Position numbers and translations under genes: made by a program
Part shown: piece by piece, positions 19,446 through 40,652 of the stretch
How the letters are laid out: each line of letters starts with the position of its first letter
Position numbering within the stretch: position 1 is the stretch's first letter
Origin: Pirellulales bacterium
GTDB taxonomy: Bacteria > Planctomycetota > Planctomycetia > Pirellulales > JAICIG01
Reading direction: 5' to 3'
NCBI GenBank assembly: GCA_040877345.1
Contig: JBBDNX010000061.1
Span: forward strand, 1-40,652
DNA length: 40,652 bases
Notes under the pieces: generated by a model
Seen by the model: only the letters and a program-made list of their open reading frames with translations
What the model was told of the DNA's origin: nothing
Databases searched by the model: none

Positions 19446-19555
19446 TCCTCATGCCGGCCCGATCGGGCCCAGGCTCTCATCCGGACCGTTGGGTTTTTCG
19501 TACCAGGTTCGCCGGCGCTACCGTTGCGCCTTCAACTTTTTACGTGAGAGCAAGC

Positions 19556-19969: not shown

Positions 19970-20146
19970 GGCCGATGCTTTGTTTATCCAGGCTGGCTAA
20001 ACGAACCAGTCGTGATAGACCTGCACGTAGTCCGCGTAGTGCAGGACGGCTTCAAGCAGGCCGCCCGCGGTCAAGGAGGCTGCCAGCAACAACAGGTGCT
20101 TCGTGCTCATCCGATCTTTCGGTGATTCGATTCGGCGGCCGGCCCG

Positions 20147-23420: not shown

Positions 23421-23472
23421 TCTTCCGTGTCCCCTCTTCCCCCGCTCCCCCCCTTCCCCCCTTCCTCTTCCT
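23421..23472. repeat. 52-nt polypyrimidine tract (3 G only), preceded by a purine-rich run at 23390-23420
   Basis: tcttccgtgtcccctcttcccccgctcccccccttccccccttcctcttcct. It fills the convergent gap between yihY and the PilZ gene and overlaps the PilZ stop codon. Confidence 0.8.
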
Positions 23473-23851
23473 AGGCGGGGGGCTGCATCGGCTGATCGTC
23501 GAGGATCTCGTTCAGAAACATCTCGCCTAATGTTTCCATCGAGACCTCGGTGACAAACTCGCAGCCCATGAGCCAACGGCCCGCGTGCGAGGGAGCCTGC
23601 CAGCGCAGCTCGCCGGCCAACGTGAGCGCCATTCCCGATTTCGAATGGGTCAGAAGCAGCATGAACTGCTCGCCGTCTTCCAGCGGGCTGCCGACAGCCA
23701 GCCGCGCTCCGTGACGCGAAAAATTGACCAGCTCCGCCGGCACGATGGGGGGCAACCGGCCGCTGCGTTCAATGCACAGTTGGGCCTGGTGGCCCGCACG
23801 CGCCTCGTAGCGGGGCCTGCGAGCCCAACATTTAGCGTAGTCAAAGCCCAT
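23471..23851 (-). CDS. Single-domain PilZ protein (c-di-GMP receptor type)
   Basis: RRPRYEAR contains RxxxR, and NFSRHG matches (D/N)xSxxG at the expected spacing. Confidence 0.75.
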   Translation of the reverse strand: MGFDYAKCWARRPRYEARAGHQAQLCIERSGRLPPIVPAELVNFSRHGARLAVGSPLEDGEQFMLLLTHSKSGMALTLAGELRWQAPSHAGRWLMGCEFVTEVSMETLGEMFLNEILDDQPMQPPA

Positions 23852-24031
23852 GGATCACTGCCAAAAGTTGCGGGTCGTGCATGAACCGGCGGCCGGAACC
23901 GCTTAAGCGTAGCTCACTTCCGAAACCTTGCCCCGCCCGGCACACCCCGGGCGGCTGCCGGTTGTAACGGCTGATCGGCCCTTGGCACCCTGCCTACAAT
24001 TCAGCGGTAGACCAATCACCGGGAGAAACAC

Positions 24032-26408: not shown

Positions 26409-26715
26409 GATGCACTCCTTTGCTTTGATTCTCTGCCGAGGCCGGCCAGAGCAGCGGCCTGGTTCGTGCCTGGATTCACCCTCCATCAACGATTTCATCG
26501 TCCGCCCAAGGCAATAAGCTTTCGTGGATTTGCCGGTTCTTCGCTAAAGCCGCAAAGAGGGGGTCATGCGTGGCTGCCCCGTTAAAGCGATCGTAAGGCG
26601 TGCGGGGTGTGGGATGGGCGGGAGAAGTTTTCGGCGCGCCGGGCCGCGATATCGAGGTTCTGTGTCGATCGGCTGTTGGCCAAGCGACCGTTACAAACCT
26701 CGGCGACCGCGCAGT

Positions 26716-26743
26716 TTGACATTCCCCCTCGCGGACTTATAGT
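26716..26743 (+). promoter_or_regulatory. Near-consensus sigma70-type promoter candidate for the pilus-like operon
   Basis: TTGACA (26716-26721), a 16-nt spacer, then TATAGT (26738-26743). It lies about 85-130 nt upstream of the candidate starts of the first pseudopilin gene. Confidence 0.4.
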
Positions 26744-26827
26744 TGCCATGCACCTGTGGCGCGAAGAAGAAGGCTACTGGTCATTCGGGCGCGGCAGGGA
26801 TAGCTGGGAGCTAGAGGGGACCCTGCC

Positions 26828-27466
26828 GTGCCTTTTATTTTGCCGCCGCGGGGCCAGGTGGGGGATCCAGCCGTGCACGCTCGCCGCCGCCGCCCCCGCG
26901 GATTCACACTCGTCGAGGCGCTTGTCTCCACTTCGATCATTGCCATCGCCGGCACGTCCGTCCTGCTGGGGATCGCCGCTTCCATCCAAGCCACCGACGA
27001 CGCACTGACCCATTCGATTGCCCTGGGCATGGCCAGGCAGCTCATCGACGAAGTGTCCGGACAGCGTTACATGGAAGCCGGCGCCGGCCCCTACGACACT
27101 CGGCTCGAGCCGGAGGCGGACGAGTCGGCCGGGCCCGGACGCAGCCTCTACGACGACATCGACGACTACAACGGCTTCAGCTCGCAGCCACCCACCGACC
27201 CGTGGGGAATCGGCCTGGCGCGCGACGACGGCCGCTCGGCCGAGCGCCATCCGCGTTTTCAACCCGCCGCCGGCTATTTCAGGCATTGGCGCCAAAGGGT
27301 CGATGTCCACTATGTCGATGAGGCGGACCTCTCGGCGCCCTTGCCGGCGGGAGTCACCAGCGATTATCGGGCCGTGCACGTGCGGATCTATGTCGACGAT
27401 CCCCTTCGCGGACCGCGGGAAATGGCCCATCTCACGCGAGTTTTCGCCCATGTGCCCCTGCCATGA
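26828..27466 (+). CDS. Prepilin-type minor pseudopilin (GspI/PilV-like)
   Basis: RRRRPRG/FTLVEALVSTSIIAIAG has Gly-1, Phe+1 and Glu+5. Possible starts are GTG 26828, TTG 26840, GTG 26858 and GTG 26873. The last gives a 10-aa leader. Confidence 0.7.
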   Translation: MPFILPPRGQVGDPAVHARRRRPRGFTLVEALVSTSIIAIAGTSVLLGIAASIQATDDALTHSIALGMARQLIDEVSGQRYMEAGAGPYDTRLEPEADESAGPGRSLYDDIDDYNGFSSQPPTDPWGIGLARDDGRSAERHPRFQPAAGYFRHWRQRVDVHYVDEADLSAPLPAGVTSDYRAVHVRIYVDDPLRGPREMAHLTRVFAHVPLP

Positions 27467-28259
27467 TGCGCCGCGGCGGTCCGGCCTCACGCTCGTCGAG
27501 CTGCTGCTGGCCGTTTCGATCATGACCGTCATGGCCGGCGTGCTGGGCGCGCTGGCCACGGCGGCCCATCAAAGCGCCGCCTACAGTCACGGCCATGGCA
27601 CGGCGACGCAACATGCCCGTGTCGCCATCGAGCGGATCGCCGGCACCGTCAGCCGCGCCACCGCGACCGAAGGCTATCCCGGCGCCGTCGTGCTCTGGGA
27701 AGAAGCCGATGGCTGGCGATTCCCGGACACGTTGGTGGTCTGGCATCCGTCCGGTCCTGCGGCCAATCCGGCCGGACCGCCGCTGATGAACGAACTGGTC
27801 ATCTTCTGCCCCGACCCGGATAGCCCGCATCAACTGGTCGAGGTCACCGCGCCGGCCGATACCCGGCCGGTTCCGCTCAACGAAACTTTGAACGACGACG
27901 CCTGGCGGACCGAGTTTGAGTCGGTGGCCCGCTCCTCGACGAGCCGCAAGGTGGTATTGACCAACCTGCTGCGGGCCGGCGCGCTCGACGGGAGCAGTCC
28001 GCGCGCCGCGGTGCGGTTCGAGTGCCGACTGAGCCCCACTTCCAGTCAATGGGCCTCGTACCAGGCCGGAACCGCAAGCTTCAACAACCTGCACTGGCCG
28101 CAGGGCATGTACGGCTCCCAGACCGGCGTCCGGCAAGTCTGGGTCCGCGTCGAACTCCAACTGCTCCCCGAACAAGCAGCCGGCCGCGCCGATCCGCACG
28201 GCGAGCTGGCCATCCCGTTTTTTGGATCGGCATCGCTCTACTACGCCATGCATCGTTGA
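27450..28259 (+). CDS. Prepilin-type minor pseudopilin (GspJ/PilW-like)
   Basis: APRRSG/LTLVELLLAVSIMTVMAG has Glu+5. The ATG at 27450 overlaps the previous gene by 17 nt. Confidence 0.65.
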   Translation: MCPCHDAPRRSGLTLVELLLAVSIMTVMAGVLGALATAAHQSAAYSHGHGTATQHARVAIERIAGTVSRATATEGYPGAVVLWEEADGWRFPDTLVVWHPSGPAANPAGPPLMNELVIFCPDPDSPHQLVEVTAPADTRPVPLNETLNDDAWRTEFESVARSSTSRKVVLTNLLRAGALDGSSPRAAVRFECRLSPTSSQWASYQAGTASFNNLHWPQGMYGSQTGVRQVWVRVELQLLPEQAAGRADPHGELAIPFFGSASLYYAMHR

Positions 28260-28262
28260 TCT

Positions 28263-29861
28263 GTGGAGGCGGCCTGGCGGCCGCGCGCGATGAACCGACC
28301 GCATCAGTTCAGAGGGCCGAGGAGGCAGGCCGCGGCGGCGCGGGAAACCGGCCGCACGGCCTCGGGCGGCGCGGCCCGCCACAGGTGCCGCAAGTCCCGC
28401 CGCGGAATGACCGTGGTGCTGGTGCTGGCCGTGATATCGATCGCCCTGGCGCTCTCCTATTCCGTCATGCGCTCGCAAGCCATGGCGCTGCGGATCGAGC
28501 ACAACAGCCAGCTCGGCTTGCTGGCAAGGCAGAGCGCCTTGACGGGATTTGCCATCGGTTGGCGCAAGATGCACCAAACTGATTGGCCGGGAGTCAACAG
28601 CACCATTGCCGGCAAGATCAGCAGCTCGGAGAGCTACAGCGTTGTCTACCGGTCTGGCGACCCGCAACTGACCCCGGGCAGCGCCGAGGATGCCGACTGG
28701 CCCTACCGCGTCAGCCTGGTGGTGACCGGCACCGCCACCGATCCGATCCAGCCCGGCGTCCAGACCACCTGCCGTCTCGTGGCAGTCGCCCGGCTGGTTC
28801 CGCGCCAGTTGGCCCCCGAGCCCGCGGCCTGGCCCGACATGCAGCAGTACACTGTATACCAGTGGGCCACGGACGACTTCTCGCTAGAGTTGCCCTGCCG
28901 GCTCGAGGGCCCGGTGCGGCTGCAGGGTCGTTTGCTGCTGGCCCAGGCGTATCCTGAGCCGTCGGCCGCCAACGGGCGCCATCTATCCGATTTGAATGCC
29001 ATGCGCGGCGAGGGCCACCCGGATCACCGGCCTCTCAACGGTCCCGTGTACCTCCCCTTTTCGCGGACCGACTCCGCCACGCTCTCGCGCTTGACCGCCA
29101 ACCTCGGTCTTTCGGTGACCGACATTCCGGAGACCACCATCTCCGATTGGGACTATCCCGGACCGATTCTGTCCTACCAGGTTTATCCGGGCGGAGAGAC
29201 CTACCAGGTTCCCACACTGGCCGGCGAGCTGGCCGACGTGACGCTTGGACCCGATCCGCGCGCCAACCCGCTCGGCCTGTTCTACCGTGCCGGCGACCTC
29301 TGGCTGCGCGACAACGTTTCAGTTCGAGGCACGCTGATCACCGAGGGACGCCTGCACATCAGCGGCGCGAACATCCGCCTGGAATCGATCGGCTTGCCCG
29401 CTTTGGACAACGATACACGTCCCGTCCACTTGCCGGCCGCCGTCGTCGCCGACGACGTCATCGTGGCCGACCGGGCACAAGTCGCCATCCAGGGAGTGAT
29501 GGCCGCCTGGGATGTATTCGATGTGGAGAACGGGTCGGTCACCACGTCGTTGAACCTCGACGGCAAGCTGATCGTCAAGAAGCTTTTCATTCGCGAACGC
29601 ACCGAATGGGACCAGCCCTCCACGACCTGGGAGGTTTGGTGGCTCGACTTCTTGGTCCAGGAGACCCTGCTGGGAGGCCAGAAATTCTTTCCCATCTGGC
29701 TCGAACAGTACGGCTGCAAGCCGGCATCGCTCTTGACGGTCAGGCCGCCGGCCGCTTCACTGACGCACCACTGGAAACGACGCGACGACCCGGTCTACGT
29801 GCCGCACCCGGCCGACCCCGGCTTGCGGTGGGATCTACTCAGCCTCTCGGACGCCCCCTGA
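28263..29861 (+). CDS. Large PilX_N/GspK-like pseudopilin (up to 532 aa) with a beta-rich C-terminal region
   Basis: RRGMTVVLVLAVISIALALSYSVMRSQAMALRIEHN has a PilX_N/GspK-type N-terminus without Glu+5. Starts: GTG 28263, or ATG 28290 or 28407. Confidence 0.55.
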   Translation: MEAAWRPRAMNRPHQFRGPRRQAAAARETGRTASGGAARHRCRKSRRGMTVVLVLAVISIALALSYSVMRSQAMALRIEHNSQLGLLARQSALTGFAIGWRKMHQTDWPGVNSTIAGKISSSESYSVVYRSGDPQLTPGSAEDADWPYRVSLVVTGTATDPIQPGVQTTCRLVAVARLVPRQLAPEPAAWPDMQQYTVYQWATDDFSLELPCRLEGPVRLQGRLLLAQAYPEPSAANGRHLSDLNAMRGEGHPDHRPLNGPVYLPFSRTDSATLSRLTANLGLSVTDIPETTISDWDYPGPILSYQVYPGGETYQVPTLAGELADVTLGPDPRANPLGLFYRAGDLWLRDNVSVRGTLITEGRLHISGANIRLESIGLPALDNDTRPVHLPAAVVADDVIVADRAQVAIQGVMAAWDVFDVENGSVTTSLNLDGKLIVKKLFIRERTEWDQPSTTWEVWWLDFLVQETLLGGQKFFPIWLEQYGCKPASLLTVRPPAASLTHHWKRRDDPVYVPHPADPGLRWDLLSLSDAP

Positions 29862-29888
29862 TCGCCACAACCTCGTAAGGAGACACTC

Positions 29889-30140
29889 ATGCAGCGCATC
29901 TCGAACCGCCGCTGGGCCCTGCTGGCGGCCGCCAATGTCCTATGTTTCTGCGTGCTAGGCTTTTACCAGCCGTCAGGCGCTGAGCCCCGCAGGTCGAACC
30001 AGCCGTTCGCCAATGCCGAGGAGCAGCGCGAGGAAATGATCAATCTGCTGCGGGACCTCAATGCCCTGGTCAAGGAGCAGAACGCCCTGTTGCGTTCAGG
30101 CAACTTGAACGTGGTCCTGCGCGAGCCGAAAAAACGCTGA
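29889..30140 (+). CDS. 83-aa membrane-anchored/secreted coiled-coil protein, unknown family
   Basis: Strong SD: AAGGAG (29877-29882) lies 6 nt before the ATG. Hydrophobic N-terminus WALLAAANVLCFCVLGF, then a helical EEQREEMINLLRDLNALVKEQNALL segment. Confidence 0.6.
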   Translation: MQRISNRRWALLAAANVLCFCVLGFYQPSGAEPRRSNQPFANAEEQREEMINLLRDLNALVKEQNALLRSGNLNVVLREPKKR

Positions 30141-30153
30141 CCCAAAACTATCG

Positions 30154-30753
30154 ATGCCCCGCCCAACACGACAATCCCCCGGATTCTCGCTGGTCGAGCT
30201 GCTGATTGTCATTTCGCTCCTGGGCATTCTGGCGGCCCTGGCCCTGCCCAGCCTGAACCCCGGCATTCACGAACGGCTCGAAGGCGCCGGACGCATCGTC
30301 GCCGCCGATCTCGCCTACGGCCGCAGCCTGGCGGTCATGAACAACAGCCACTACCGCTTCACGTTCGACCTGGCGAACAACCGCTATTCGTTCGAGCACA
30401 CAGGATCGAACCCGGCCCTGGACGTTCTCCCCCCCAATCCGTTCCATGCCTCCGGCCCAACGCCCGATCGCCATGCATTCGACCTCTCGGAGTTTCCCTA
30501 CCTGGGTGGCGCGGTCCGGCTGGGCGCCGTAGGCACGGCCGGCACCAACCCTGCTCCCGAGACCGAGCTGGAGTTCGGGCCGCTGGGCCAAACCGGCCGG
30601 GCCCACCCAACGGTCATTTGGCTTACCGCCGGCACCGGTGCCGCCCAACGCTGGACCTCGGTGAGCGTGAACCCCGTTACCGGACTGGCCAGCATCGAAT
30701 CGTTTCAGGCAACGGGCCCTCCCCCGGCGCTCGCGGCTGAATCGACTTTTTGA
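30154..30753 (+). CDS. Prepilin-type pseudopilin (GspH/FimT-like)
   Basis: QSPG/FSLVELLIVISLLGILAALALPS followed by RIVAADLAYGRSLAVMNN, which resembles the GspH/FimT domain. Confidence 0.75.
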   Translation: MPRPTRQSPGFSLVELLIVISLLGILAALALPSLNPGIHERLEGAGRIVAADLAYGRSLAVMNNSHYRFTFDLANNRYSFEHTGSNPALDVLPPNPFHASGPTPDRHAFDLSEFPYLGGAVRLGAVGTAGTNPAPETELEFGPLGQTGRAHPTVIWLTAGTGAAQRWTSVSVNPVTGLASIESFQATGPPPALAAESTF

Positions 30754-30784
30754 TCAATCGGACCGGGCAACAGCAGGTGCATCG

Positions 30785-31834
30785 ATGGTAGGTTGGTGGA
30801 CGAACCGGCGGGCGGGTCCGATCGGTGTGGACATCGGCAGCCACTCCGTCAAGCTTCTCCAGCTCAATGGCGACCGGACGAGTCTGATCGAACGCTCGCG
30901 ATGGGATCTGCCAGCCGCTGCCGAGCGGCAAGCCCCCGCCGCCGGGCTGGCCGAGGCCTTGAAGCGGGCCTACGAAGGCCGCGGCTTCCAGGGCCGCGAT
31001 GCGGTGGTTTCCCTTGGCTCGCGCGAGCTGTTCGTGCAAAACGTGCGGGTCGACAAAGTGGCCGGAGGCGACCTGGACCGGATGATCCGCCAGGAAGTCG
31101 CCGAGCGGATCCCCTTCGCCCTGGAGGAGGCCGAGATCCGCTATCTCGAGGCGGCCGACGTCCGCCAGCAAGAGGTGACGCGCAGGGAGGTGATCGTGCT
31201 GGCCTGCCACCGCCCCGTATTGGAACAATTGCTCTTGGCTGTCCGCGAGGCGGGTCTGCACCCCGTGGCCGTCGACGTCGAGCCGGCCGCCTTGCTGCGC
31301 TGTTACGCAACCCAGTTCCGCCGCGACGAGGACAAGGCCCAGCGGGCCCTGTTTGTCCACGTGGGGGCGGCCAACACCGCCGTGGTCATCGCCCAGGGCA
31401 CCGACGCCCTGTTCATCAAGTACCTCGACGTCGGCGGCCGCAACCTCGACGAGTCGGTGGCCCGCCACCTGGGTATGGAGCCGGCCGAAGCCTGGGCCTT
31501 GCGCCGGCACAACGGCGACCGCCGGACCGACCAGCAGGACCCGGAGGTTGCTCTCAGCCTGATGGAGTCGACCCGGCCGGTCGTCGATCGCCTGGCCAAC
31601 GAGATCTCGCTCTGCGTCCGGTACCACAGCGTCACGTTCCGTGGTCAGCCGCTGGCCAGGCTGGTTCTCGGTGGAGGCGAGGCCAGCCAGGCGCTGGCCG
31701 ATACGTTGGCCACGCGGCTCAACTTGAAATGCGAGCTTGGCGACCCGTTGCGGCCCTACGAGCCGGCGGCCGGCGGCGGCCGCAAATCGCAGTGGGACGT
31801 GGCCGCCGGCCTCGCCATGCGCGACTTGAACTGA
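30785..31834 (+). CDS. pilM: Type IV pilus assembly protein PilM (actin-like ATPase fold)
   Basis: IGVDIGSHSVKLLQL...VAVDVEPAALLRCY...LFVHVGAANTAVVIA...LDVGGRNLDE. Confidence 0.85.
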   Translation: MVGWWTNRRAGPIGVDIGSHSVKLLQLNGDRTSLIERSRWDLPAAAERQAPAAGLAEALKRAYEGRGFQGRDAVVSLGSRELFVQNVRVDKVAGGDLDRMIRQEVAERIPFALEEAEIRYLEAADVRQQEVTRREVIVLACHRPVLEQLLLAVREAGLHPVAVDVEPAALLRCYATQFRRDEDKAQRALFVHVGAANTAVVIAQGTDALFIKYLDVGGRNLDESVARHLGMEPAEAWALRRHNGDRRTDQQDPEVALSLMESTRPVVDRLANEISLCVRYHSVTFRGQPLARLVLGGGEASQALADTLATRLNLKCELGDPLRPYEPAAGGGRKSQWDVAAGLAMRDLN

Positions 31835-31862
31835 ACACCCGTTTGCGGACATCGGCTGCGAA

Positions 31863-32648
31863 ATGAAAAACATCGACTTCCTGCCCGCCGAGTACCGCCG
31901 GCAGACGGCCGATCGCAAGACGCGCCGCGTGCGCTGGGCCGTGCTGGCGTTGTTCGCCGCCGTGCTGGCCGCCGCCACGGCGGGTCAGTTCGCCCTGCGC
32001 CGCCGGCTCCAGGCCGAGCTGGAACTGGTGCGCGGCCAACACGACGAGGCGGTTGCAACCGGCCAGCGGCTGGCGGCCCTGCAGTCCGAGTTCGCCGGCG
32101 AGCAGGCTGTCGCCCAACTGGTCACCTGGCTGCGGCACCCCTGGCCGCGCACCCGGATCCTGGCCGCCGCGCTGGAGCCGCTGCCCGGCCCCGTGACCCT
32201 GGGCAAGCTCGACCTCACGCACGATGTTCCGGCCGCATCGTCGGCGTTCGACAAGCCGGCGCGTCCCCCCGTCCAGACCGGCGAGTTGAAGCATCTTCCG
32301 CCGGCCCACCGCGATCTGGCCCGCTTGCGCAACGAGTTCGATTCGCTGCGGACCGTCGTGAACCTGGAAGGCACCACCACCAGTGGCACCGCGTTGCACG
32401 ACTATCTCGGCGCCCTGGCCGCAATCGAGCTCTTCTCCAAGGCCGAGCTGGTCGCCATCGTGCGCGTGCACAACGAGCAACAAGAGTCGTTTCGCTTTCA
32501 CATTCGCCTGATTGTTCGACCCGGATATGGGCAGCCCCAAGGTCCCGCGCCCCAATCGGCCGGGGACTCCAACCGGGTGACCGCCGCCGGCGGCCCGAAC
32601 GCCTCTTCGATCGGTGCGGAGGGACCTCATGTCCAGCACGTCCGCTGA
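31863..32648 (+). CDS. pilN: PilN-like bitopic assembly protein
   Basis: MKNIDFLPAEYRRQ, then a TM helix (WAVLALFAAVLAAATA) and a coiled coil. Its position is immediately after pilM. Confidence 0.6.
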   Translation: MKNIDFLPAEYRRQTADRKTRRVRWAVLALFAAVLAAATAGQFALRRRLQAELELVRGQHDEAVATGQRLAALQSEFAGEQAVAQLVTWLRHPWPRTRILAAALEPLPGPVTLGKLDLTHDVPAASSAFDKPARPPVQTGELKHLPPAHRDLARLRNEFDSLRTVVNLEGTTTSGTALHDYLGALAAIELFSKAELVAIVRVHNEQQESFRFHIRLIVRPGYGQPQGPAPQSAGDSNRVTAAGGPNASSIGAEGPHVQHVR

Positions 32649-33177
32649 CCGTGGCAAGTGGTTGCTGCCGCTGACGCTGGTGGTGGGCACGGCGGCCTGG
32701 CTCCCCCTCCTGTTCCTGCCGGGAAAAAAAGCCATCGCCGACCTGCGCCACGATCTCAAGACCAGGCAGGACTACGTGACGTCGGCGAGCCGGTCGGGAG
32801 CCTTGCTCGAAAGTACCGCGCGCGACCTCGAGCGCACGCGCGCTTACAACGCCCGCTGGCGGGGCCGCCTGGCCGATTCGGCCCAACTCGCCTCGCTGTT
32901 CAGCGAAATCGCTCAGCTTGTCCGGGAGTCGGGTGCGGCCACCACGAGGTTCGCGCCCCAAAGTCCCATCCAATACGACCACGTCCGTCGGATCCCGCTG
33001 GCCGTGGCCTGCGAGGGAACTTTCGAACAGCTTCAGGCCCTGCTGCTGGCCGTGGAGCAGCTTGGCCAGCGACTTTGGGTCAGCCAGATCAAGCTGGAGG
33101 CTGGCGAAGCCGGGCAACTTGTGAAGTGCGAGCTAACTTTGGTCATTTTTGCCGATCAATCGGCGGTTTCGGATTAG
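32629..33177 (+). CDS. pilO: PilO-like bitopic assembly protein
   Basis: TM helix (WLLPLTLVVGTAAWLPLLFL), a coiled coil, then a ferredoxin-like C-terminus (IPLAVACEGTFEQLQALLLAVEQL...VKCELTLVIF). The ATG at 32629 overlaps pilN by 20 nt. Confidence 0.6.
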   Translation: MSSTSADRGKWLLPLTLVVGTAAWLPLLFLPGKKAIADLRHDLKTRQDYVTSASRSGALLESTARDLERTRAYNARWRGRLADSAQLASLFSEIAQLVRESGAATTRFAPQSPIQYDHVRRIPLAVACEGTFEQLQALLLAVEQLGQRLWVSQIKLEAGEAGQLVKCELTLVIFADQSAVSD

Positions 33178-33233
33178 GGAAGCCCTCCGGCCGGCCGATA
33201 CTTGATAGGGACTCTTCTCAGGACGCCATCCAA

Positions 33234-33860
33234 GTGACCGCAAAACTGATCAGACAACTGCGACGCGAGGCGCGGGCCAACCCGAAAAAGGCCGGCTTCC
33301 TGGCGCTGATGCTCGTGGTAGCCATCTACGCCTGGGCGCCCGTCGCGATGAACTGGGCGGCCCCGCAGCCGTTGGCGGCTGCGCCGCCGGCGCCCGCCGG
33401 CGCCCAGCCCGGCAGCCAGATGGCCAGCACCTCCGACCACCGTCCACTGGCCCTGCCTCCATGGCAGCTCGTCGCAGCGTGGATCGATGGCGACCCGCTG
33501 ATGCGGCCCGGCTGGGGCGGCCAAGAACACCTGGCCTACGGGCGCAATCCATTTGCCCCGGATCAATCCGCGCAGCGGGCGGCCGGGAGTCGCCCAGACG
33601 ATGAGGCCCCGGGCAATGCCAGCCCGGCCGAGTTGGGAATGGTGCTCTCGAGCACCGTGATCGGGCCTCTGCGGCGGACCGCCATGATCAATGGGAAGGC
33701 CTATCCCCAGGGAGCCGAAGTACAAGCGGCCGATGGAACCCGCTTCGTGCTCAGCCGGGTCGAGCCCCGGCGCGTCGTGCTGAGCCGAGGAGGCCGCCAC
33801 TTCGAGCTGGCCATCGTGCGCCAAGCGGCCGGCCGAATAGCCATCGGAGCGGCCCACTAA
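33234..33860 (+). CDS. PilP/GspC-HR-like secretin-interacting protein (tentative)
   Basis: GTG start, TM helix (GFLALMLVVAIYAW), a Pro/Ala linker and a C-terminal small beta domain (GMVLSSTVIG..RRTAMINGKAYPQGAEV..FVLSRVEPRRVVLSRGGRHFEL). Confidence 0.45.
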   Translation: MTAKLIRQLRREARANPKKAGFLALMLVVAIYAWAPVAMNWAAPQPLAAAPPAPAGAQPGSQMASTSDHRPLALPPWQLVAAWIDGDPLMRPGWGGQEHLAYGRNPFAPDQSAQRAAGSRPDDEAPGNASPAELGMVLSSTVIGPLRRTAMINGKAYPQGAEVQAADGTRFVLSRVEPRRVVLSRGGRHFELAIVRQAAGRIAIGAAH

Positions 33861-33907
33861 AACGACCTTTTCCACAAGGCTGAACTTCGCTGGGTCATGG
33901 AAGACCG

Positions 33908-36127
33908 ATGAAGCATTCTCTTACCTGGATCGTGTTGGCTTGTTGCGGAGCGCTTGGGGCCGGCGCAGCCGTTTGGTTGGGGCTTTCGCTGGAGCCGCCC
34001 GGCGACGATCCGGCCGGCGGCGCTGACGGCCCTGGGCCAAGCATCGTTGCCATGGCCAGCCCGCGCCCGCTAGGCACGCGCCTAGCGGCCCGGCGTCAGG
34101 CAATCGAGCCGCCGGCCTTGCCGGACCGCTCGCTGGTCGAACCGATCGTCGAACCGGCCCATCCACCGCGGACCAGCCAGGTCGCACCCGAACCGGCCGA
34201 CTCGGTCACCAGCGGCGCCGTGCTCAAAGCGCTGGAGCAATTCGCGCAGGCGGCCGCCGCCGGCCGGCCCGACGGCCAGACCCCTTCCGCCGCGCCGCCG
34301 GTTGACGATCCGGGCGAGTCCCGCGAACTGCCGCCGGCCGAGCAGGTTCCCGCCGGCCGCGACCCCCTGCCCCGCATCGAGCGGATTCGCGGCAACGGCG
34401 AGGGAGACAACCAGCTTGTGATCCACATTCAGGACGAAGACCTTCGCCAGGTCCTGGCCCTGCTGAGCGAGCAAGGAGGCTTGAACATCCTGGCCGGACC
34501 CAGCGTGCAGGGCAAGGTGTCGGCCACGCTCAACGGCGTCTCGGTCGAAGCCGCCCTGGAGGCGATTCTCAAATCCACCGGTTTCATCGCCCACCGCGAC
34601 GGCCAGTTCATCTACGTGGGAACCAGCCAGGAGTTCGAGGCCATGCGGCAGTCGCTCGATCGTATCGGCACCCGCATCTACCGGCCGAACTTCGTAACGG
34701 CCAGGGACCTGCAAACGCTGATTGCCCCCTTGCTCACCACCGCCAGCGGCAAGATCAGCGTCACCGCGCCGGCCGAGGTGGGCATTGCCACCGATACCAC
34801 CGACGCCGGCGGCGATTCGATGGCCGGCGGTGAAGCCGTGCTAGTGCAGGACTACGAGGACGTCTTGGCGCATATCGACCAGGTCGTCCAGGAGATCGAC
34901 CGGCGGCCGGCCCAGGTCTCGATCGAGGCCATGATCCTTTCGGTCAAGCTCAACGACCAGAACCAGTTCGGCGTCGACTTCCAGTTGCTGCGCGACAAGA
35001 GCAACGTAAGGTTCGGCCTCGGCAGCCCGCGCATCAATCCACTCGAAGGAGGCGGACAGATCAACCCGGTAACCGGCGGCACGATCGGCGAGTTCGACTT
35101 CGACGGCGGAGGAATGAGCTTTGCCTTTCTCGACGACAGCCTGGGGGCCTTCTTGACCGCCCTGGAGACCATCGGCGATACCAACGTCATCGCCACGCCC
35201 CGTCTGATGTGCCTCAACAAGCAGCGCGCCGAGATCCTCATCGGAGCGCAGCTCGGCTACATCAGCACCACGCTCACGTCGACCAGCACCTCGCAGAACG
35301 TCAACTTCCTCGAGGTGGGAGCCCAGTTGCGCATCCGGCCCTTCATCTCCAGCGACGGTCTGATCCGCATGGAAGTGCACCCCGAACTGTCGACCGGCAG
35401 CGTCCGCGTCGAGCAAGGCTTCACGCTCCCCGACAAGGAGGTCACCCAGGTCACCACCAATATCATGGTCCGCGACGGCTGCACCGTGATCATCGGCGGC
35501 CTGATGCGCGAGGACCTGAGCACCTCCACAAGCCAGATCCCCCTGGTGGGCAGCCTGCCGATCGTGGGGGCCCTGTTTCGCAACAAGACCGAAAAGATCG
35601 ACCGGCGAGAAATACTCGTTTTGATCACGCCGCGGATCGTCGGCGAGCCGGCCACCTGCGTCGAAGGAGCCGAACAGGCCCACGCCTTCCTGGCACGCCA
35701 GGCGGTCGTGGCCGACGCAATGACCCCGCTGGGCAAACGTTACCTGGGACGGAAGAACCTGCGCAAGGCCCAGCAGGCCGCTGCCGCCGGAGACCGCGCC
35801 TCGGCGATCAGGCTCGCCGAGCTGGCCGTGCATTTCGATCCGCTCAATCTCGAAGCGGTCGAGTTCTCTCGCTCGTTGACGGTCAGGGGCGGCGGAAAAC
35901 CCGAGGTCGTCGTTGAGGGCCCGATCGATGCGGCTGACCATCCGCTGGACGGCGAAACGATCCCTCCCTGGGTCCTCGACCAATTGGAGGCGGATGGCGG
36001 AAACTCAATCGAACATCCCGGCAGCATGCCTCGCGAGCTGGCGCCCCCCGCCGGCCCGCGGGCTTCCCTCCCTCGCCGGCCCGCTGTTCCCATCCAGCGG
36101 CCAGGAGCACCGGATGCCAATCGCTAG
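33908..36127 (+). CDS. Secretin (PilQ/GspD family) with a C-terminal helical extension
   Basis: N-domains (LRQVLALLSEQGGLNILAGPSVQGKVS...; IYRPNFVTARDLQTLIAPLL) and the secretin core (NVIATPRLMCLNKQRAEILIG...IPLVGSLPIVGALFRNKTEKIDRREILVLITPRIV). Confidence 0.9.
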   Translation: MKHSLTWIVLACCGALGAGAAVWLGLSLEPPGDDPAGGADGPGPSIVAMASPRPLGTRLAARRQAIEPPALPDRSLVEPIVEPAHPPRTSQVAPEPADSVTSGAVLKALEQFAQAAAAGRPDGQTPSAAPPVDDPGESRELPPAEQVPAGRDPLPRIERIRGNGEGDNQLVIHIQDEDLRQVLALLSEQGGLNILAGPSVQGKVSATLNGVSVEAALEAILKSTGFIAHRDGQFIYVGTSQEFEAMRQSLDRIGTRIYRPNFVTARDLQTLIAPLLTTASGKISVTAPAEVGIATDTTDAGGDSMAGGEAVLVQDYEDVLAHIDQVVQEIDRRPAQVSIEAMILSVKLNDQNQFGVDFQLLRDKSNVRFGLGSPRINPLEGGGQINPVTGGTIGEFDFDGGGMSFAFLDDSLGAFLTALETIGDTNVIATPRLMCLNKQRAEILIGAQLGYISTTLTSTSTSQNVNFLEVGAQLRIRPFISSDGLIRMEVHPELSTGSVRVEQGFTLPDKEVTQVTTNIMVRDGCTVIIGGLMREDLSTSTSQIPLVGSLPIVGALFRNKTEKIDRREILVLITPRIVGEPATCVEGAEQAHAFLARQAVVADAMTPLGKRYLGRKNLRKAQQAAAAGDRASAIRLAELAVHFDPLNLEAVEFSRSLTVRGGGKPEVVVEGPIDAADHPLDGETIPPWVLDQLEADGGNSIEHPGSMPRELAPPAGPRASLPRRPAVPIQRPGAPDANR

Positions 36128-37166
36128 GCGATCACCCGCCGCCGCCAGCCGGGCCCGGCCAACCGCGCTGCCCGCAAGCCTGGTCCTGGGCATGGCTGTT
36201 CTGCTGCCCTGCTGCGGCTGCGCGAAGCTCAAATCGTGGAAAGGCGCCGACGATGTTCGGCCCGAGCGCATCGGCCGCGCGCAGGCCGCCGCCAAATCGT
36301 TCGATCTTCAACGCGAGCAGGGCGAATACCAATCGGCCCTCGCCCGCTGGCGGCAGGCAGATTTCGACGGGTGCCGCCAGACCCTCCAACGCCTGCTGGC
36401 TCGGAATCCCGACCATCGCGACGCCCGGCTGATGATGGCCGAACTGTGCATGCTGGCTGCCCAGCCCGGCGAGGCCCTGAACCATCTCGACCATGCCCTG
36501 GCCGGCCACCCCGACGACCCCCGGGTCCAGCACGCCATGGCCATGCTGTTAGACGCCCAAGACCAGGGCGAAGCCGCCCTGGGCCACTACCAGCGGGCCG
36601 CCGAACTGGCGCCTCACGATCAGGCCTACGCCGCCAGCTATCGTTCGGCATTGGCCAGCTTGCGGCGCGGGCCCCCTGCCGGCACGGCCGTCCGCACCTC
36701 GCACGCCGTTGCCGCCCTCCCCCTTCCTGCACTCGCTCCGCAGGCGCGGCTCTGGCTCGACGAGGCCGACCGGGCGCTTGCCGGGCGCGAGATCGACCAG
36801 GCACGCCAGTCCATTCAGCGGGCCATCGCGGCTGATCCGCGCAACCCGCAAGCGAGGCTCTCCGCGTCCGTGCTCGCGCTGCGGCATGACGAATTGGAAC
36901 TTTCCATCGAGCTGGCCCGTACCGGTTGCTCCGCTTTTCCCGATTCGGCCGCCCTACACCGCGTCCTGGGCGCGGCACACTACCGCCTCGGGGACCTGGC
37001 CGCATCTCAAGTCGCACTGACGCAAGCACTTTACTTGGACAACGCGGATCCCCTGTCCTACTTTTTATTGGCTTCCACGCTGGCCAGGCTGGGACAAGCC
37101 GATTCGGCCGACTGGCATTATCGCCAGGCTCGACGGCTGGACCCGCGTTACGCCCGCGTTCGGTAG
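36114..37166 (+). CDS. TPR-repeat lipoprotein (PilF/PilW-pilotin-like)
   Basis: AGGAG lies 8 nt before the ATG. Lipobox-like VLLPCCGC. Several TPR-like helical pairs. Overlaps the secretin gene by 14 nt. Confidence 0.65.
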   Translation: MPIARRSPAAASRARPTALPASLVLGMAVLLPCCGCAKLKSWKGADDVRPERIGRAQAAAKSFDLQREQGEYQSALARWRQADFDGCRQTLQRLLARNPDHRDARLMMAELCMLAAQPGEALNHLDHALAGHPDDPRVQHAMAMLLDAQDQGEAALGHYQRAAELAPHDQAYAASYRSALASLRRGPPAGTAVRTSHAVAALPLPALAPQARLWLDEADRALAGREIDQARQSIQRAIAADPRNPQARLSASVLALRHDELELSIELARTGCSAFPDSAALHRVLGAAHYRLGDLAASQVALTQALYLDNADPLSYFLLASTLARLGQADSADWHYRQARRLDPRYARVR

Positions 37167-37190
37167 CCCGGCCGGCCCCGCCCAGCGGCG

Positions 37191-38744
37191 ATGGCCCGCC
37201 GCGCTTGTCTGCCCGGCAACCAAGACCCACTGCGTCCAATGCACGACTTCAAAGGCAAACTACTCTGGGCCGCGCCGGCCCTGGCCGCCTCCCTGCTGGC
37301 CGGCTTGACATGGGCCGCCGGAAGCAGCCTGGGGGGTTGGAGCTGGCTGGCGTTGATCGGCTGGTTCGTGTTGGGTGCCGTGGCAGCCGGTGGTCCGCTC
37401 GCTGTCGTCTGCCGGCGAATGCAGCACCGGCAGCAAATCGCCCGGAATTACCTGGAGCGGCTCTCGCGGCTCGAACATCACCAGCTCGGCCCCGACGCGC
37501 CGTGCGAGCTGGGGCCGGCTTTGCACGAGGGCCATCTTTGGGCGGGGCTCTTGAACCAGATCAAGGACAACCTGGCCACTCAAGCGGCCCGGTGGGCCGA
37601 GGCCGAACATGCCCGGGCCGCCCTCGAGATCCGGGCTCGCCGGCATGCCGCCGAGGCGGATAGGGCCAGCAAAATTCTCTGCGGGCTTCCGGAGCCGGTG
37701 CTCGCCGTCGGCGCTTACGACGAACTGTTGCTGGCCAACCCCAGCGCGGCCCGGTTGTTCGACTTCGATCCCACCGCCTGCGGCCGGCAGGCGCTGGGCG
37801 GCGTGGTGCACTGCGAAAAACTGTTGGCCCTGCTCAACGATACCCGCCGGCGCAAGTCGCCGCTGCCCCGCAGCGAGGAGCTGGAGCTGGACGGTCCCGA
37901 CGGCGCCGCGCGGTGGTACAGCGTCTGCACGTCGGCCTTGCCGTTGGACGGCGATGCCGCGCGGCCCTCGGACGCCGGCTACGGTGCGGTGGCCGTCCTG
38001 CGCGACGTCAGTTCGCAGAAGCGGGTCCAGCGGACCAACGCCGAGTTCGTTTCGGCCGCCAGCCACGAGATGAAAACCCCCTTGGCCGGCATCAAGGCTT
38101 ACGTCGAATTGCTGGCCGACGGCGATGCCCAGGACGAGGCGACGCGCGAGGAGTTCCTCCAAGTCATCAATGGCCAGGCCGACCGCCTCGAGCGGTTGAT
38201 CGACAACTTGCTCAACCTGGCGCGGATCGAGGCCGGCGTCGTCAAGGTCAGCAAGCAAAGCCAGCCGCTCAACGAAATCCTCTGCGAGGCGGTCCGCGTG
38301 GTCCAACCTTCGGCCGAGGCCAAGAGGATCGAGCTCTCGCACGAGCTCAGTCCACTCTACCTTGGCGTGCTGGCCGACCGCGACATGTTGCTGCAAGCGG
38401 CCATGAACTTGTTGTCCAACGCGGTCAAATACACGCCGCCCGGCGGAAGCGTAGTGCTGCGCAGCCGCCTGGTGGACCGCGACGTGCAGTTCGAAGTCGA
38501 GGACACGGGCGTCGGCCTGTCGAGCGAAGACTGCCAGCGGGTGTTCGACAAGTTCTATCGGGTCGACAAGGACAAGCAGATGGCGTCGGGCACCGGTCTC
38601 GGTCTGCCTTTGGCCAAGTACATCATCGAGGACGTGCACAACGGACGCTTGACGGTCGAAAGCCAGCTCGGCGCCGGCAGCACCTTCCAGGTCACGCTGC
38701 CCGGTGCGGGCCAATTGAACTCGAAACAGGAGCGGCGGGCCTGA
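37191..38744 (+). CDS. Sensor histidine kinase (two TM helices with a very short external loop, PAS-like domain, HisKA, HATPase_c)
   Basis: H-box FVSAASHEMKTPLAGI, N-box NLLSNAVKYTP, G-boxes EDTGVGL and GTGLGLPLAK. Alternative start at ATG 37239. Confidence 0.85.
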   Translation: MARRACLPGNQDPLRPMHDFKGKLLWAAPALAASLLAGLTWAAGSSLGGWSWLALIGWFVLGAVAAGGPLAVVCRRMQHRQQIARNYLERLSRLEHHQLGPDAPCELGPALHEGHLWAGLLNQIKDNLATQAARWAEAEHARAALEIRARRHAAEADRASKILCGLPEPVLAVGAYDELLLANPSAARLFDFDPTACGRQALGGVVHCEKLLALLNDTRRRKSPLPRSEELELDGPDGAARWYSVCTSALPLDGDAARPSDAGYGAVAVLRDVSSQKRVQRTNAEFVSAASHEMKTPLAGIKAYVELLADGDAQDEATREEFLQVINGQADRLERLIDNLLNLARIEAGVVKVSKQSQPLNEILCEAVRVVQPSAEAKRIELSHELSPLYLGVLADRDMLLQAAMNLLSNAVKYTPPGGSVVLRSRLVDRDVQFEVEDTGVGLSSEDCQRVFDKFYRVDKDKQMASGTGLGLPLAKYIIEDVHNGRLTVESQLGAGSTFQVTLPGAGQLNSKQERRA

Positions 38745-38766
38745 GGCGGCCGTCCGGGAGACCACC

Positions 38767-39180
38767 ATGAGCAAGCGCGTGCTCTTGTGCGACGACGAAA
38801 TCCACATCCTGCGGGCCGCGGAGTTCAAGCTCTCCCGCGCCGGCTTCCACGTCCGCTGTGCCGCGGATGGGCTCGAAGCCTGGGAAGCCATCCAGCAGGA
38901 GTGCCCGGACTTGCTGGTCACCGACTTTCAGATGCCGCGGCTGACCGGGCTGGAGTTGATCCAGCGCCTGCGCCAGAACGAGTCCACTCGGCACCTGCGG
39001 GTCGTGGTGCTCACGGCCAAGGGCCTCGAACTGTCGGCCACCGAGCTGGCCGAGAAGTGGGGAGTGCTGGCGGTGCTCGGCAAGCCCTTCAGTCCCCGCG
39101 AGCTCCTGCGGATCGTCGAAAGCATTGTCGCCACCGGTGCCCCGCCCGACCCACGCCCACTCGATCCCACCGCGCCATGA
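38767..39180 (+). CDS. Stand-alone CheY-like response-regulator receiver
   Basis: VLLCDDE...DLLVTDFQMPRLTG...VLTAKG...GKPFS. No output domain. Collinear with the receiver at 20147-20587. Confidence 0.85.
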   Translation: MSKRVLLCDDEIHILRAAEFKLSRAGFHVRCAADGLEAWEAIQQECPDLLVTDFQMPRLTGLELIQRLRQNESTRHLRVVVLTAKGLELSATELAEKWGVLAVLGKPFSPRELLRIVESIVATGAPPDPRPLDPTAP

Positions 39181-39503
39181 ACCTGCCCACGGAAACCTTC
39201 GGCGAAGTCATCGTGGTCCACACGCCCGAGGAGCTCGGCGCCGACCAGGCGGCCGCCTTCGAGGCGCTGCTGGTGTCGCTCGAGCGCCGTCACGTCGTCT
39301 TGGATCTCGACAGCACCGAGACGCTCGACAGCCAGGGCCTGACCGCCTTGCTCAACTCGCAGGACAACCTCCGCGAGCTGGGCGGCGACGTCAAGCTGGC
39401 CACCAGCAACTCCAGCAACCGCAAGATCCTGGAGATCACCCGGCTCGACCGGCAACTGGAAGTCTTCGAAAACGTGATCGACGCGGTCAAGAGCTTCCGT
39501 TAA
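39177..39503 (+). CDS. STAS-domain protein (anti-sigma-factor-antagonist type)
   Basis: The ATG overlaps the receiver stop (ATGA at 39177-39180). VVLDLDSTETLDSQGLTALL carries the conserved phosphorylatable Ser context (Ser52, nt 39330-39332). Confidence 0.8.
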   Translation: MNLPTETFGEVIVVHTPEELGADQAAAFEALLVSLERRHVVLDLDSTETLDSQGLTALLNSQDNLRELGGDVKLATSNSSNRKILEITRLDRQLEVFENVIDAVKSFR

Positions 39504-39524
39504 AAACCTCGCGGGGCCCGCGCC

Positions 39525-40652
39525 ATGCCAAACCACAACGAATCGCCGCAGCGGCTGGGCGCCCTGCTCGTCGAGCGGGGCTATCTCACGCCCGAAGGGC
39601 TGGCCGCGGCCCTGGCCCAGCAACAGGGCGGCAACCAGCAAAAACTGCTCGGCGAGATCCTGATCGAGACGGCGGTCTGTACCGAGGAGCAGGTCGTCGA
39701 GTGCCTGGGCCTGGAATACGGCGTTCCCTATGCCCGGCTCGAGGCCCGCACGCACGATCCCAAGGTCATCGAAATCCTGCCTCGCGAGTACATCGAAAAG
39801 AACCTGGTGCTGCCGCTGTTCGTGGTCCGCAACGTGCTCACCGTGGCGGTGGCCGAGCCCTCGAACCTTTTTCTCATCGACGAGATCCAGGGCATCAGCC
39901 GGCTCGACGTGCAGATCGTGGTGGCCACGTCGAAAGACATCCGCCGCGTCATCACCCACCTGCCGAATTCCAAGGTCTTCGTGATCGACGACATCATCGA
40001 AGGCGCCGATACCGCCGACGTCACGCTCATCGACGAAGCCATCGAGGACATCGGCGACCTCGCCGAGATCGCCGGCCAGTCGCCGGTCATCCGGCTGGTG
40101 AACTACATCATCTACAACGCGGTCAAGGAGGGCGCCAGCGACATCCACATCGAACCGGCCGAACGCTGCCTGCGGGTCCGCTACCGTATCGACGGCCGGC
40201 TCTACAAATCGTTGGAAGTTCCGCTGCACCTGTTGTCCGCCGTGACCAGCCGCATCAAGATCATGGCCTCGCTCGATATCAGCGAGCGCCGGCTGCCCCA
40301 GGACGGCCGCATCAACGTGCTCTTGGACAAGCGGAAGATCGACCTGCGCACCAGCACCTTCCCCATGAGCCGCGGCGAGAAGACCGCGATCCGCGTGCTC
40401 GATACCCGTACCGTGTCCCTGGTGCTCGAGGAGCTGGGCTTCGCCGAGGACATCCTGGCCAGCTTGCGCGAGCAGATCCGCGCCCCCAACGGCATCGTGC
40501 TGGTCACCGGCCCCACCGGCAGCGGCAAGTCGACCACGCTCTACGCGGCCCTGAACGCCATCAGCTCGATGGAGAACAACATCTGCACCGTCGAAGACCC
40601 GATCGAGTACCACCTGCCGCTCATCAACCAGTTCCAGGTGCAGGAGCGGGTG
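39525..40652 (+). CDS. GspE/PilB-family secretion ATPase, 5' part (runs off the window; absent from the supplied ORF track)
   Basis: My own translation: MPNHNESPQRLGALLVERGYLTPEGLAAALAQQ...SPVIRLVNYIIYNAVKEGASDIHIEP...RYRIDGRLY...LPQDGRI...GIVLVTGPTGSGKSTT (Walker A). There is no stop before nt 40652. Confidence 0.9.
   Translation, partial: MPNHNESPQRLGALLVERGYLTPEGLAAALAQQQGGNQQKLLGEILIETAVCTEEQVVECLGLEYGVPYARLEARTHDPKVIEILPREYIEKNLVLPLFVVRNVLTVAVAEPSNLFLIDEIQGISRLDVQIVVATSKDIRRVITHLPNSKVFVIDDIIEGADTADVTLIDEAIEDIGDLAEIAGQSPVIRLVNYIIYNAVKEGASDIHIEPAERCLRVRYRIDGRLYKSLEVPLHLLSAVTSRIKIMASLDISERRLPQDGRINVLLDKRKIDLRTSTFPMSRGEKTAIRVLDTRTVSLVLEELGFAEDILASLREQIRAPNGIVLVTGPTGSGKSTTLYAALNAISSMENNICTVEDPIEYHLPLINQFQVQERV

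Follow-up and report, generated by a model that had tools for sequence, protein, structure and literature searches.

Does a locus whose best matches are mixed between two related machines encode a hybrid of the two? The question is raised by the last 14 kb of a contig from a Pirellulales bacterium (JBBDNX010000061.1, assembly GCA_040877345.1), of which we analyzed the whole stretch of 40,652 nucleotides (called the window below). An earlier note on this DNA described a cluster of 15 genes on one strand that would join pseudopilins of a type II secretion system (T2SS) to the PilMNOP and secretin module of a type IV pilus (T4P), with signalling genes of its own. Our results favor another answer: the locus is probably the assembly operon of a machine of the type IVa pilus (T4aP) class, i.e., a type IV filament, that is conserved in Pirellulales. 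Its architecture is T4aP-like in that PilM is a protein apart from PilN, an IDFLP peptide stands at the N-terminus of PilN, the secretin can be aligned colinearly with PilQ, the gene of a tetratricopeptide repeat (TPR) protein overlaps that of the secretin, and the assembly ATPase has an N-terminal extension of the type that binds cyclic di-GMP (c-di-GMP). The hybrid is not borne out, since the mixed best matches are all sub-threshold and fall between homologous families. What is new is a lineage-specific, single-operon system of the T4aP class in which the tip pilin is predicted to be ComZ-like, one small gene is added, and kinase, receiver, and STAS genes are linked to the motor, whereas its parts and its logic are known.

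Organization and conservation of the locus

The features of the locus are the following, with the genes numbered G1 to G15 in their order and the scores in bits.

26716..26743 (+): sigma-70-like promoter, TTGACA-16 nt-TATAGT, 5' of G1 (11/12 match; expected number of such sites in the region, 1.2)
26828..27466 (+): G1, prepilin-type minor pilin in the PilV/GspI position (N_methyl 26.9 bits; motif RG/FTLVE)
27450..28259 (+): G2, prepilin-type minor pilin in the PilW/GspJ position (N_methyl 23.1 bits)
28263..29861 (+): G3, large tip pilin-like protein without Glu+5, predicted to be ComZ-like (no Pfam or NCBIfam match)
29889..30140 (+): G4, 83-aa protein, hydrophobic at the N-terminus and helical at the C-terminus (weak T2SSM match only, 17.7 bits for a cutoff of 27.8)
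30154..30753 (+): G5, GspH/FimU-type minor pilin (N_methyl 29.2 bits; XpsH 32.9 and GspH 27.6, N-terminal only)
30785..31834 (+): G6, PilM, cytoplasmic and actin-like (PilM_2 PF11104 94.8 bits over 1-338/340; TIGR01175 138.4 for a cutoff of 133)
31863..32648 (+): G7, PilN with an N-terminal IDFLP peptide (PF05137 24.5 bits for a cutoff of 22.8)
32629..33177 (+): G8, PilO/GspM-type protein (PilO PF04350 38.6 bits for a cutoff of 22, and T2SSM_b 34.6, both above cutoff)
33234..33860 (+): G9, connector anchored in the membrane, its C-terminal domain GspC-HR/PilP-like (T2SSB 24.3 bits, sub-cutoff)
33908..36127 (+): G10, secretin of PilQ-type layout (N0/STN, one N1, secretin domain) with a Pro-rich C-terminal extension (Secretin 137 bits, STN 28.9)
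36114..37166 (+): G11, TPR protein, candidate pilotin or assembly factor of the secretin (several TPR families)
37191..38744 (+): G12, membrane histidine kinase with a PhoR/PnpS/WalK-like core (HisKA 71.9 bits, HATPase_c 92.6; PnpS 263, sub-cutoff)
38767..39180 (+): G13, single-domain response-regulator receiver (Response_reg 79 bits)
39177..39503 (+): G14, STAS protein of the anti-sigma-antagonist type (STAS 43.6 bits)
39525..40652 (+): G15, PilB/GspE-family assembly ATPase, of which the window end leaves the first 376 aa (T2SSE 226 bits, MshEN 71.5)

Pfam and NCBIfam searches with each open reading frame (ORF) bear out the parts list of the earlier note, although G3 and G4 gave no significant match to any family and G9 gave weak ones only. 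Its description of the layout was also accurate. The ORF listing and a third-position GC test give an unbroken series of 15 plus-strand genes between 26828 and 40652, in line with the claim that all genes are on this strand from about 26.83 kb to the window end. The minus-strand ORFs in this interval are only antisense shadows, and the raw ORF lists are crowded because the GC content of the window is about 66%. Start codons lie exactly at 27450, 32629, 36114, and 39177, resulting in overlaps of 17 nt (G1 and G2, 27450-27466), 20 nt (pilN and G8, 32629-32648), 14 nt (secretin and TPR genes, 36114-36127), and 4 nt (the ATGA shared by G13 and G14, 39177-39180), as had been claimed. The remaining gaps, given before as about 3-60 nt, measure 3-56 nt. 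The promoter-like site at 26716-26743 is near consensus, with a function that is predicted only. No plus-strand terminator-like site was found in any intergenic gap, and the two weak ones are both inside pilM. These signals support the single-unit organization that had been proposed, and the locus looks like one transcription unit. Judging from related genomes, the complete unit is made of 16 genes: the 15 in the window and a platform gene just beyond its end.

Exact look-ups of the STAS protein and of the kinase met no record, and the receiver was met only in a contig of 967 bp; the surroundings of the locus are therefore described from orthologous loci. Relatives were searched by a scan with the ATPase fragment, keeping one genome per species. 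This gave 80 loci with 72-86% identity in the ATPase, almost all of them under a label of Pirellulales, Thermoguttaceae, or some other planctomycete taxon. Colinearity was counted on the 55 species-level loci with 8 kb or more of visible sequence upstream of the ATPase gene. The order PilM-PilN-PilO-G9-secretin-TPR-kinase-receiver-STAS-ATPase is kept in 51 of them, and the same arrangement is found in four further loci that were anchored on G3 (L082-L085). Hence, the arrangement is conserved far beyond chance. At the 5' end, the G3-anchored loci have housekeeping genes, typically nadC, and then G1, G2, G3, the small ORF, and G5. At the 3' end, the ATPase gene of related loci is always followed by one platform gene of the T2SSF family, and then by unrelated, often convergent genes. 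The small ORF, G4, is kept at the same position with 40-71% identity and is called as a gene of 77-95 aa in L082-L085. On this conservation, it is to be regarded as a real gene.

The locus is split in four loci (L009, L059, L061, and L078) and in one metagenome-assembled genome, where it is divided between L049 (DATAXP010000032.1) and L083 (DATAXP010000096.1). One block then comprises the tip, alignment, secretin, and TPR genes, and the other the kinase, receiver, STAS, ATPase, and platform genes; in L061, the motor block consists of receiver, STAS, ATPase, and platform, without an adjacent kinase. Since the blocks separate in these five cases, the locus is composed of two evolutionary modules, with the signalling genes as part of the motor module.

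The earlier note held that the arrangement is not a described one, which is only partly the case. The pil cluster of Myxococcus xanthus is one single-locus arrangement. Another has been described for the mannose-sensitive haemagglutinin (MSH) pilus (PMC6668835). For the planctomycete locus itself, our literature search found no paper describing a T4P or T2SS locus of this kind. Planctomycetes are unmentioned in the main text of Denise et al. 2019 (PMC6668835), and the sole supplementary mention that names a system is the Tad system of Pirellula.

Alignment complex, secretin and motor

The alignment complex is where the T4aP-like character is clearest. G6 is a separate actin-like PilM, as expected of a T4aP, and it scores above the NCBIfam cutoff. 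An [ILV][DE]FLP motif lies 3-4 residues past the start methionine in 50 of the 51 PilN orthologues. A PilM-binding motif, INLLP, is known in PilN, and IDFLP resembles it. The pair expected in a T4aP, PilN with a conserved N-terminal peptide of the PilM-binding type and PilO, is thus represented here by G7 and G8, binding of the peptide by PilM being predicted. The fused GspL with GspM that marks a T2SS is not seen: no match to GspL was found among the ORFs, and G8 reaches only 30.1 bits with the GspM_XpsM model, for a cutoff of 60. The next gene, G9, most likely starts at the GTG at 33234 and not directly after pilO. A profile of its 38 orthologues matches the HR domain of GspC (2lnv, E 3.4e-4), a domain homologous to the core of PilP. 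No PilP family of Pfam or NCBIfam matches G9, and its N-terminus is a membrane anchor, not a lipobox.

The secretin aligns end to end with the PilQ model (3-427/428, 205.7 bits, sub-cutoff at 284). With GspD, it scores 215.2 bits over the whole protein (sub-cutoff at 351), and the best stretch covers model positions 283-595, i.e., the C-terminal part only. In the PDB, PilQ proteins take the first five places; residues 168-586, which span N0 through the secretin domain, align with them colinearly. No AMIN domain was found in the protein. Outside this PilQ-like core, residues ~1-170 and ~580-739 are long low-complexity extensions rich in Pro and Ala. The orthologues have 814-905 aa. The best NCBIfam match of the overlapping TPR gene is PilW (TIGR02521, 68.4 bits for a cutoff of 154), and Tgl gives 25 bits. 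The earlier note had called this product a TPR lipoprotein: the TPR part stands, whereas the N-terminus, LLPCCGC, is only lipobox-like.

The ATPase shows an N-terminal c-di-GMP motif of the MshE type (NF053729, 45.1 bits for a cutoff of 38). The signature RLGxxLVxxGxLxxxxLxxALxxQ is found in 77 of the 80 orthologues. The pair of RLGxx(L/V/I)(L/V/I)xxG... motifs that marks MshEN-type N-termini is present in the sequence, the first being exact, and kept in 77 of 80 orthologues, and the second degenerate; binding of c-di-GMP is predicted. A CxxC...CxxC motif, as is typical of assembly ATPases, was also found. The fragment in the window scores 327 bits with PilB and 301 with GspE. For a full-length orthologue (L003), the values are 605 (cutoff 676) and 604 (cutoff 630), respectively. 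The PilB model is covered by this orthologue from one end to the other (2-562/564), and the PilB structures of Geobacter and Myxococcus are matched end to end with 500 bits. Its N-terminal extension lies within the PilB alignment, whereas the GspE model lacks it.

A locus of this kind, with a c-di-GMP motif in its ATPase, invites comparison with the MSH pilus, which would be encoded in a single locus without a peptidase and controlled by c-di-GMP through an MshE-like ATPase. The msh genes of Vibrio cholerae have the order found here: alignment proteins, secretin, TPR protein, ATPase, and platform. MSH loci are also single loci without peptidase, and their mshA can be a loner (PMC6668835). However, MshM is mandatory in the MSH model (PMC6668835), and none of the 15 ORFs encodes an MshM-like AAA protein. 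The secretin scores 147 bits with MshL, which is under the cutoff of 250 and under the score with PilQ. Moreover, PilM and PilN are separate here, and the minor pilins are upstream, not downstream. We regard an MSH locus as highly improbable, and a T4aP-class machine remains our preferred reading.

Tip proteins, major subunit and class of the machine

The largest tip protein, G3, has no significant Pfam or NCBIfam match, and its named homologues are all planctomycete proteins called hypothetical. The full ORF has 532 aa. Translation probably begins at the ATG at 28407, which gives 484 aa, as in a database protein with 94% identity, and retains an RRG/MTVVL prepilin-like junction without Glu+5. 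The AlphaFold2 (AF2) model (pLDDT 92.7, pTM 0.83) has a pilin helix of 53 residues (2-54) followed by beta structure. When this model was compared with the PDB by Foldseek, the sole significant match was ComZ of Thermus thermophilus (6qvi_B, E 1.3e-4, probability 0.99, TM-score 0.25), and beta-solenoid ice-binding proteins ranked next. ComZ combines a GspK-like pilin domain with an inserted solenoid resembling ice-binding proteins, caps the pilus, and binds DNA (PMC6561018). The two kinds of match of G3 are thus the same similarities that were reported for ComZ, and the predicted model shows the build of a ComZ-type tip pilin: an N-terminal pilin helix and a GspK-like domain with an inserted beta-solenoid. 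The description of G3 in the earlier note, a 532-aa GspK-like protein without Glu+5, was right in spirit; the predicted fold refines it to ComZ-like, and the likely start shortens it. Some proteins of the G3 family (P0033, P0035, and P0039) have 717-792 aa and carry a lectin-type Laminin_G_3 domain (PF13385). This suggests that they are modular tip adhesins, and such domains fit an exposed position at the tip.

The other tip proteins are smaller. The true start of G1 is probably the GTG at 26858 or 26873. Its best N-terminal NCBIfam match is PilV (25.7 bits), ahead of GspI (19.5), both sub-cutoff, and orthologues are present in L082-L085. The globular part of G1 has no match in the PDB by sequence, the profile search reaching only the N-terminal pilin helix. 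The same helix is all that profiles of G2 and of G5 matched among PDB sequences. G2 has 393 relatives in the database, of which one is labelled PilW by its source. Its AF2 model (pLDDT 92.6) gave nothing significant with Foldseek, the sole pilin-related match being EpsJ (TM-score 0.40-0.43 on the target, E 0.4). The GspH family of Pfam (PF12019) is matched by 14 of 20 G5 orthologues, with a best E of 1.2e-6, the copy in the window being below its reach. This rules out G5 as the major pilin.

The similarity to ComZ raises the possibility of a competence pilus for DNA uptake, as in T. thermophilus, with G3 as the DNA receptor at its tip. ComZ is the only significant structural relative of G3, and it binds DNA and caps a competence pilus (PMC6561018), although a solenoid fold does not imply DNA binding. 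In all four G3-anchored loci, a ComEA-type helix-hairpin-helix gene is found some 1.3 kb upstream of the first pilin gene and is flanked by uvrB (except in L083, where uvrB was not seen) and nadC (L082:6705-7109, minus strand, TIGR00426 55.9 bits for a cutoff of 53.1; equivalents in L083, L084, and L085). There, it is on the opposite strand, and the linkage may be incidental; near the cluster in the window, such a gene is absent. Furthermore, no comEC was seen, and we know of no report of natural transformation in Pirellulales. A competence pilus therefore seems to us quite improbable.

Which subunit would form the filament itself? A search for canonical prepilin motifs in the six frames of the 40.6-kb window found three, those of G1, G2, and G5, and no others, and so the major pilin, claimed earlier to be lacking from the 14 kb, is absent from the whole window. 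The orthologous loci, which end after the platform gene, extend this observation. Candidates for the missing subunit are prepilins that are GspG-like at the N-terminus and end in an H-X9-DG domain, a family that we take to be DUF1559. In some genomes, they are encoded at a distance of several kb from the locus, and never inside it (L016:17753-18793 and 19485-20504, both on the minus strand; also at about 16206 in L009, 19990 in L028, and 17488 in L066). Planctomycete genomes have been reported to encode up to 68 DUF1559 paralogues and around 100 proteins with a prepilin motif each.

Such prepilins would also suit a divergent T2SS, in which a short periplasmic endopilus of GspG-like subunits encoded elsewhere pushes folded exoproteins (e.g., carbohydrate-active enzymes) through the secretin. 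That related genomes encode them (PMC8567305, PMC10632474) speaks for such a system, as do the lack of a retraction ATPase in the locus and the best or near-best matches to GspF (359), GspD (215), GspM (30), GspH/XpsH, and the HR domain of GspC. But all T2SS equivalog scores are sub-cutoff (GspD 215 for 351, GspE 604 for 630, GspF 359 for 424). PilM and PilN, with its IDFLP peptide, take the place of a fused GspL; the secretin has the PilQ-type layout and PilQ proteins as best PDB matches; its partner is a TPR protein and not a small pilotin of the PulS/AspS type; and the ATPase has the N-terminal c-di-GMP extension of PilB and MshE. Canonical T2SS operons carry gspG, which is missing here: none of the three prepilin motifs in the window belongs to a protein that is GspG-like in its globular part. 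Finally, the tip is a 484-aa protein with a predicted solenoid, to which some relatives add lectin-type domains. We consider a T2SS unlikely.

This leaves the hybrid. The best scores are indeed mixed: 605 for PilB and 604 for GspE, 330 for PilC and 359 for GspF, 206 for PilQ and 215 for GspD. All of them are sub-cutoff and involve homologous families, which led us to reject a true chimera; they are consistent with a deep divergence of these families. The core minor pilins of T4aP (FimU, PilV, PilW, and PilX) are homologues of GspH, GspI, GspJ, and GspK. The minor pilins of the Thermus T4P look more like T2SS pseudopilins (PMC6561018). Hence, T2SS-type pseudopilins inside a T4P machine are normal and do not make it a hybrid. 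The hybrid reading is further weakened by the better match of G1 to PilV than to GspI and by the predicted likeness of G3 to ComZ, the tip pilin of a true type IV pilus.

Several points weigh against a T4aP-class machine. The core of the ATPase is equidistant from both families (419 bits with PilB and 412 with EpsE, a GspE, on the same 405 residues in the PDB), the platform orthologue scores higher with GspF than with PilC, both sub-cutoff, and G9 is closer to the HR domain of GspC than to the PilP lipoprotein. The assignments of G1 and G2 come solely from the N-terminal motif, the size, and the position, and the TM-score of the ComZ match to the G3 model is low, though its probability is high. 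No PilT, major pilin, or prepilin peptidase was found in the window or in the up to 10 kb of DNA visible downstream of the ATPase gene in related loci. This does not exclude them from the genome, since T4aP genes are usually dispersed across several loci (PMC6668835). The single transcript and the role of the signalling genes are our inference, and no filament, pilin substrate, or phenotype is known for the locus.

Signalling genes, proposed mechanism and comparison with known systems

The regulatory insert described in the earlier note is indeed dedicated to this locus: receiver and STAS genes stand directly 5' of the ATPase gene in 74 of 74 loci. In the receiver, the positions of the acidic pocket, the phospho-Asp, the Thr, and the Lys are conserved in 54 orthologues. 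The STAS protein is 52-83% identical across loci, and the DS pair at the position of the phospho-serine of SpoIIAA is at least 95% conserved in 61 sequences. No DNA-binding domain was detected in either protein. Because of this, because both genes are inseparable from that of the ATPase, and because the phospho-sites are kept, we infer that kinase, receiver, and STAS protein form a post-translational on/off switch on the motor, by phosphotransfer and partner switching, and not a transcription circuit. In the searchable literature, we found no report of a link between STAS proteins and PilB, nor of receiver or STAS proteins gating ATPases of the PilB family.

In the mechanism that we propose, transcription would begin at the promoter-like site (26716) and yield a single transcript. 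G1, G2, G3, and G5 would be cleaved by a prepilin peptidase whose gene lies elsewhere, and they would form the priming and tip complex with G1 in the role of PilV/GspI, G2 in that of PilW/GspJ, G5 in that of GspH/FimU, and G3 as a ComZ/GspK-like cap without Glu+5. PilM would clamp the IDFLP N-terminus of PilN in the cytoplasm, while PilN, PilO, and G9 would span from the inner membrane to N0 of the PilQ-type secretin. The TPR protein, translationally coupled to the secretin, would aid the assembly of the latter. The hexameric ATPase of the PilB type, which probably responds to c-di-GMP, and the platform protein would then polymerize a major subunit encoded elsewhere, which would be added under the tip complex and pushed through the secretin. 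Kinase, receiver, and STAS protein would switch the motor post-translationally, alongside c-di-GMP. A more speculative extension, which we think doubtful, is that the machine assembles the expanded GspG-like DUF1559/H-X9-DG prepilins of planctomycetes. It would then be a multi-substrate system for fibres or pilin display, e.g., of crateriform fibres that capture polymers, with a motor gated directly by a partner switch of the receiver and STAS proteins. The genes of these prepilins are all outside the locus.

Planctomycetes stand out by unusual envelopes, surface fibres, and crateriform structures, and they encode a very large family of prepilin-like proteins that is so far unexplained. With a single and highly conserved operon for a type IV filament, there is an obvious genetic handle on what builds their fibres and how these are switched. 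The significance of the locus would rise sharply if the machine handled DUF1559 prepilins or if STAS and receiver gated PilB directly. More generally, best matches that look T2SS-like and T4P-like in deep-branching phyla should not be taken as chimerism.

Upstream of the locus, the window carries a divergent MORN-repeat gene, HtrA, BrkB, CdaA, DUF1501, and other housekeeping genes. The MORN-repeat protein (25101-26498, minus strand, 465 aa), weakly similar to a Leptospira adhesin family, is encoded directly 5' of the promoter region, at the position taken by nadC in related genomes. Some 3 kb upstream of the locus is the gene of a small PilZ-domain protein (23471-23854, minus strand, Pfam 35.2 bits), a possible c-di-GMP receptor near an ATPase with its own c-di-GMP motif. 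The 489-aa ORF at 20926-22395 (plus strand) fuses a diadenylate cyclase (CdaA N-terminal domain and DAC) to a YbbR-like domain; as a rule, CdaA and CdaR, its regulator with a YbbR domain, are two proteins.

Among known systems, the T4aP of Pseudomonas aeruginosa and M. xanthus share with this locus the separate PilM, PilN with a peptide of the PilM-binding type, PilO, the layout of a PilQ-type secretin, a TPR partner beside it (PilF/PilW/Tgl), an ATPase of the PilB type whose N-terminus carries a c-di-GMP motif, a platform protein, and four prepilin-like core minor pilins, one of them without Glu+5. They differ in that the genes form one operon here and three in Pseudomonas, and in that the present locus lacks the major pilin, PilT, and PilD. 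Its PilP counterpart is membrane-anchored and GspC-HR-like, its tip is ComZ-like instead of PilX with PilY1, it has an extra 83-aa gene, and the kinase-receiver-STAS trio stands in place of PilS/PilR. The equivalog scores for PilB, PilC, and PilQ are all sub-cutoff.

The competence and T4P system of T. thermophilus (pilA1-3, comZ, pilA4; pilMNOWQ; PilF) resembles the locus in having a large GspK-like tip pilin with a beta-solenoid beside small T2SS-like minor pilins, a PilMNO-type alignment complex with a secretin, and an ATPase with N-terminal domains of the c-di-GMP-binding type, PilF having N-terminal domains that bind c-di-GMP. In contrast, sequence similarity of G3 to ComZ is undetectable and the likeness is one of predicted fold only, no major pilin follows the tip gene here, and the order is I, J, K, small ORF, H.

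With the MSH system of Vibrio (mshIJKLMNEGF), the shared traits are a single locus, the order from alignment proteins through secretin, TPR protein, and ATPase to platform, the c-di-GMP N-terminus of the ATPase, and the lack of a peptidase in the locus. The present locus differs by having no MshM, a secretin nearer to PilQ than to MshL, pilin genes upstream, no major pilin, and the signalling trio before the ATPase. From the T2SS (GspC-M), it differs by the absence of GspG from the operon and of a fused GspL, by a PilQ-type layout instead of the N0-N3 layout of GspD, by the TPR partner, and by the c-di-GMP N-terminus of the ATPase. The two have in common homologous parts throughout, a GspC-HR-like connector, a GspF-like score of the platform protein, a GspM-like protein of the PilO type, and a locus without a retraction ATPase.

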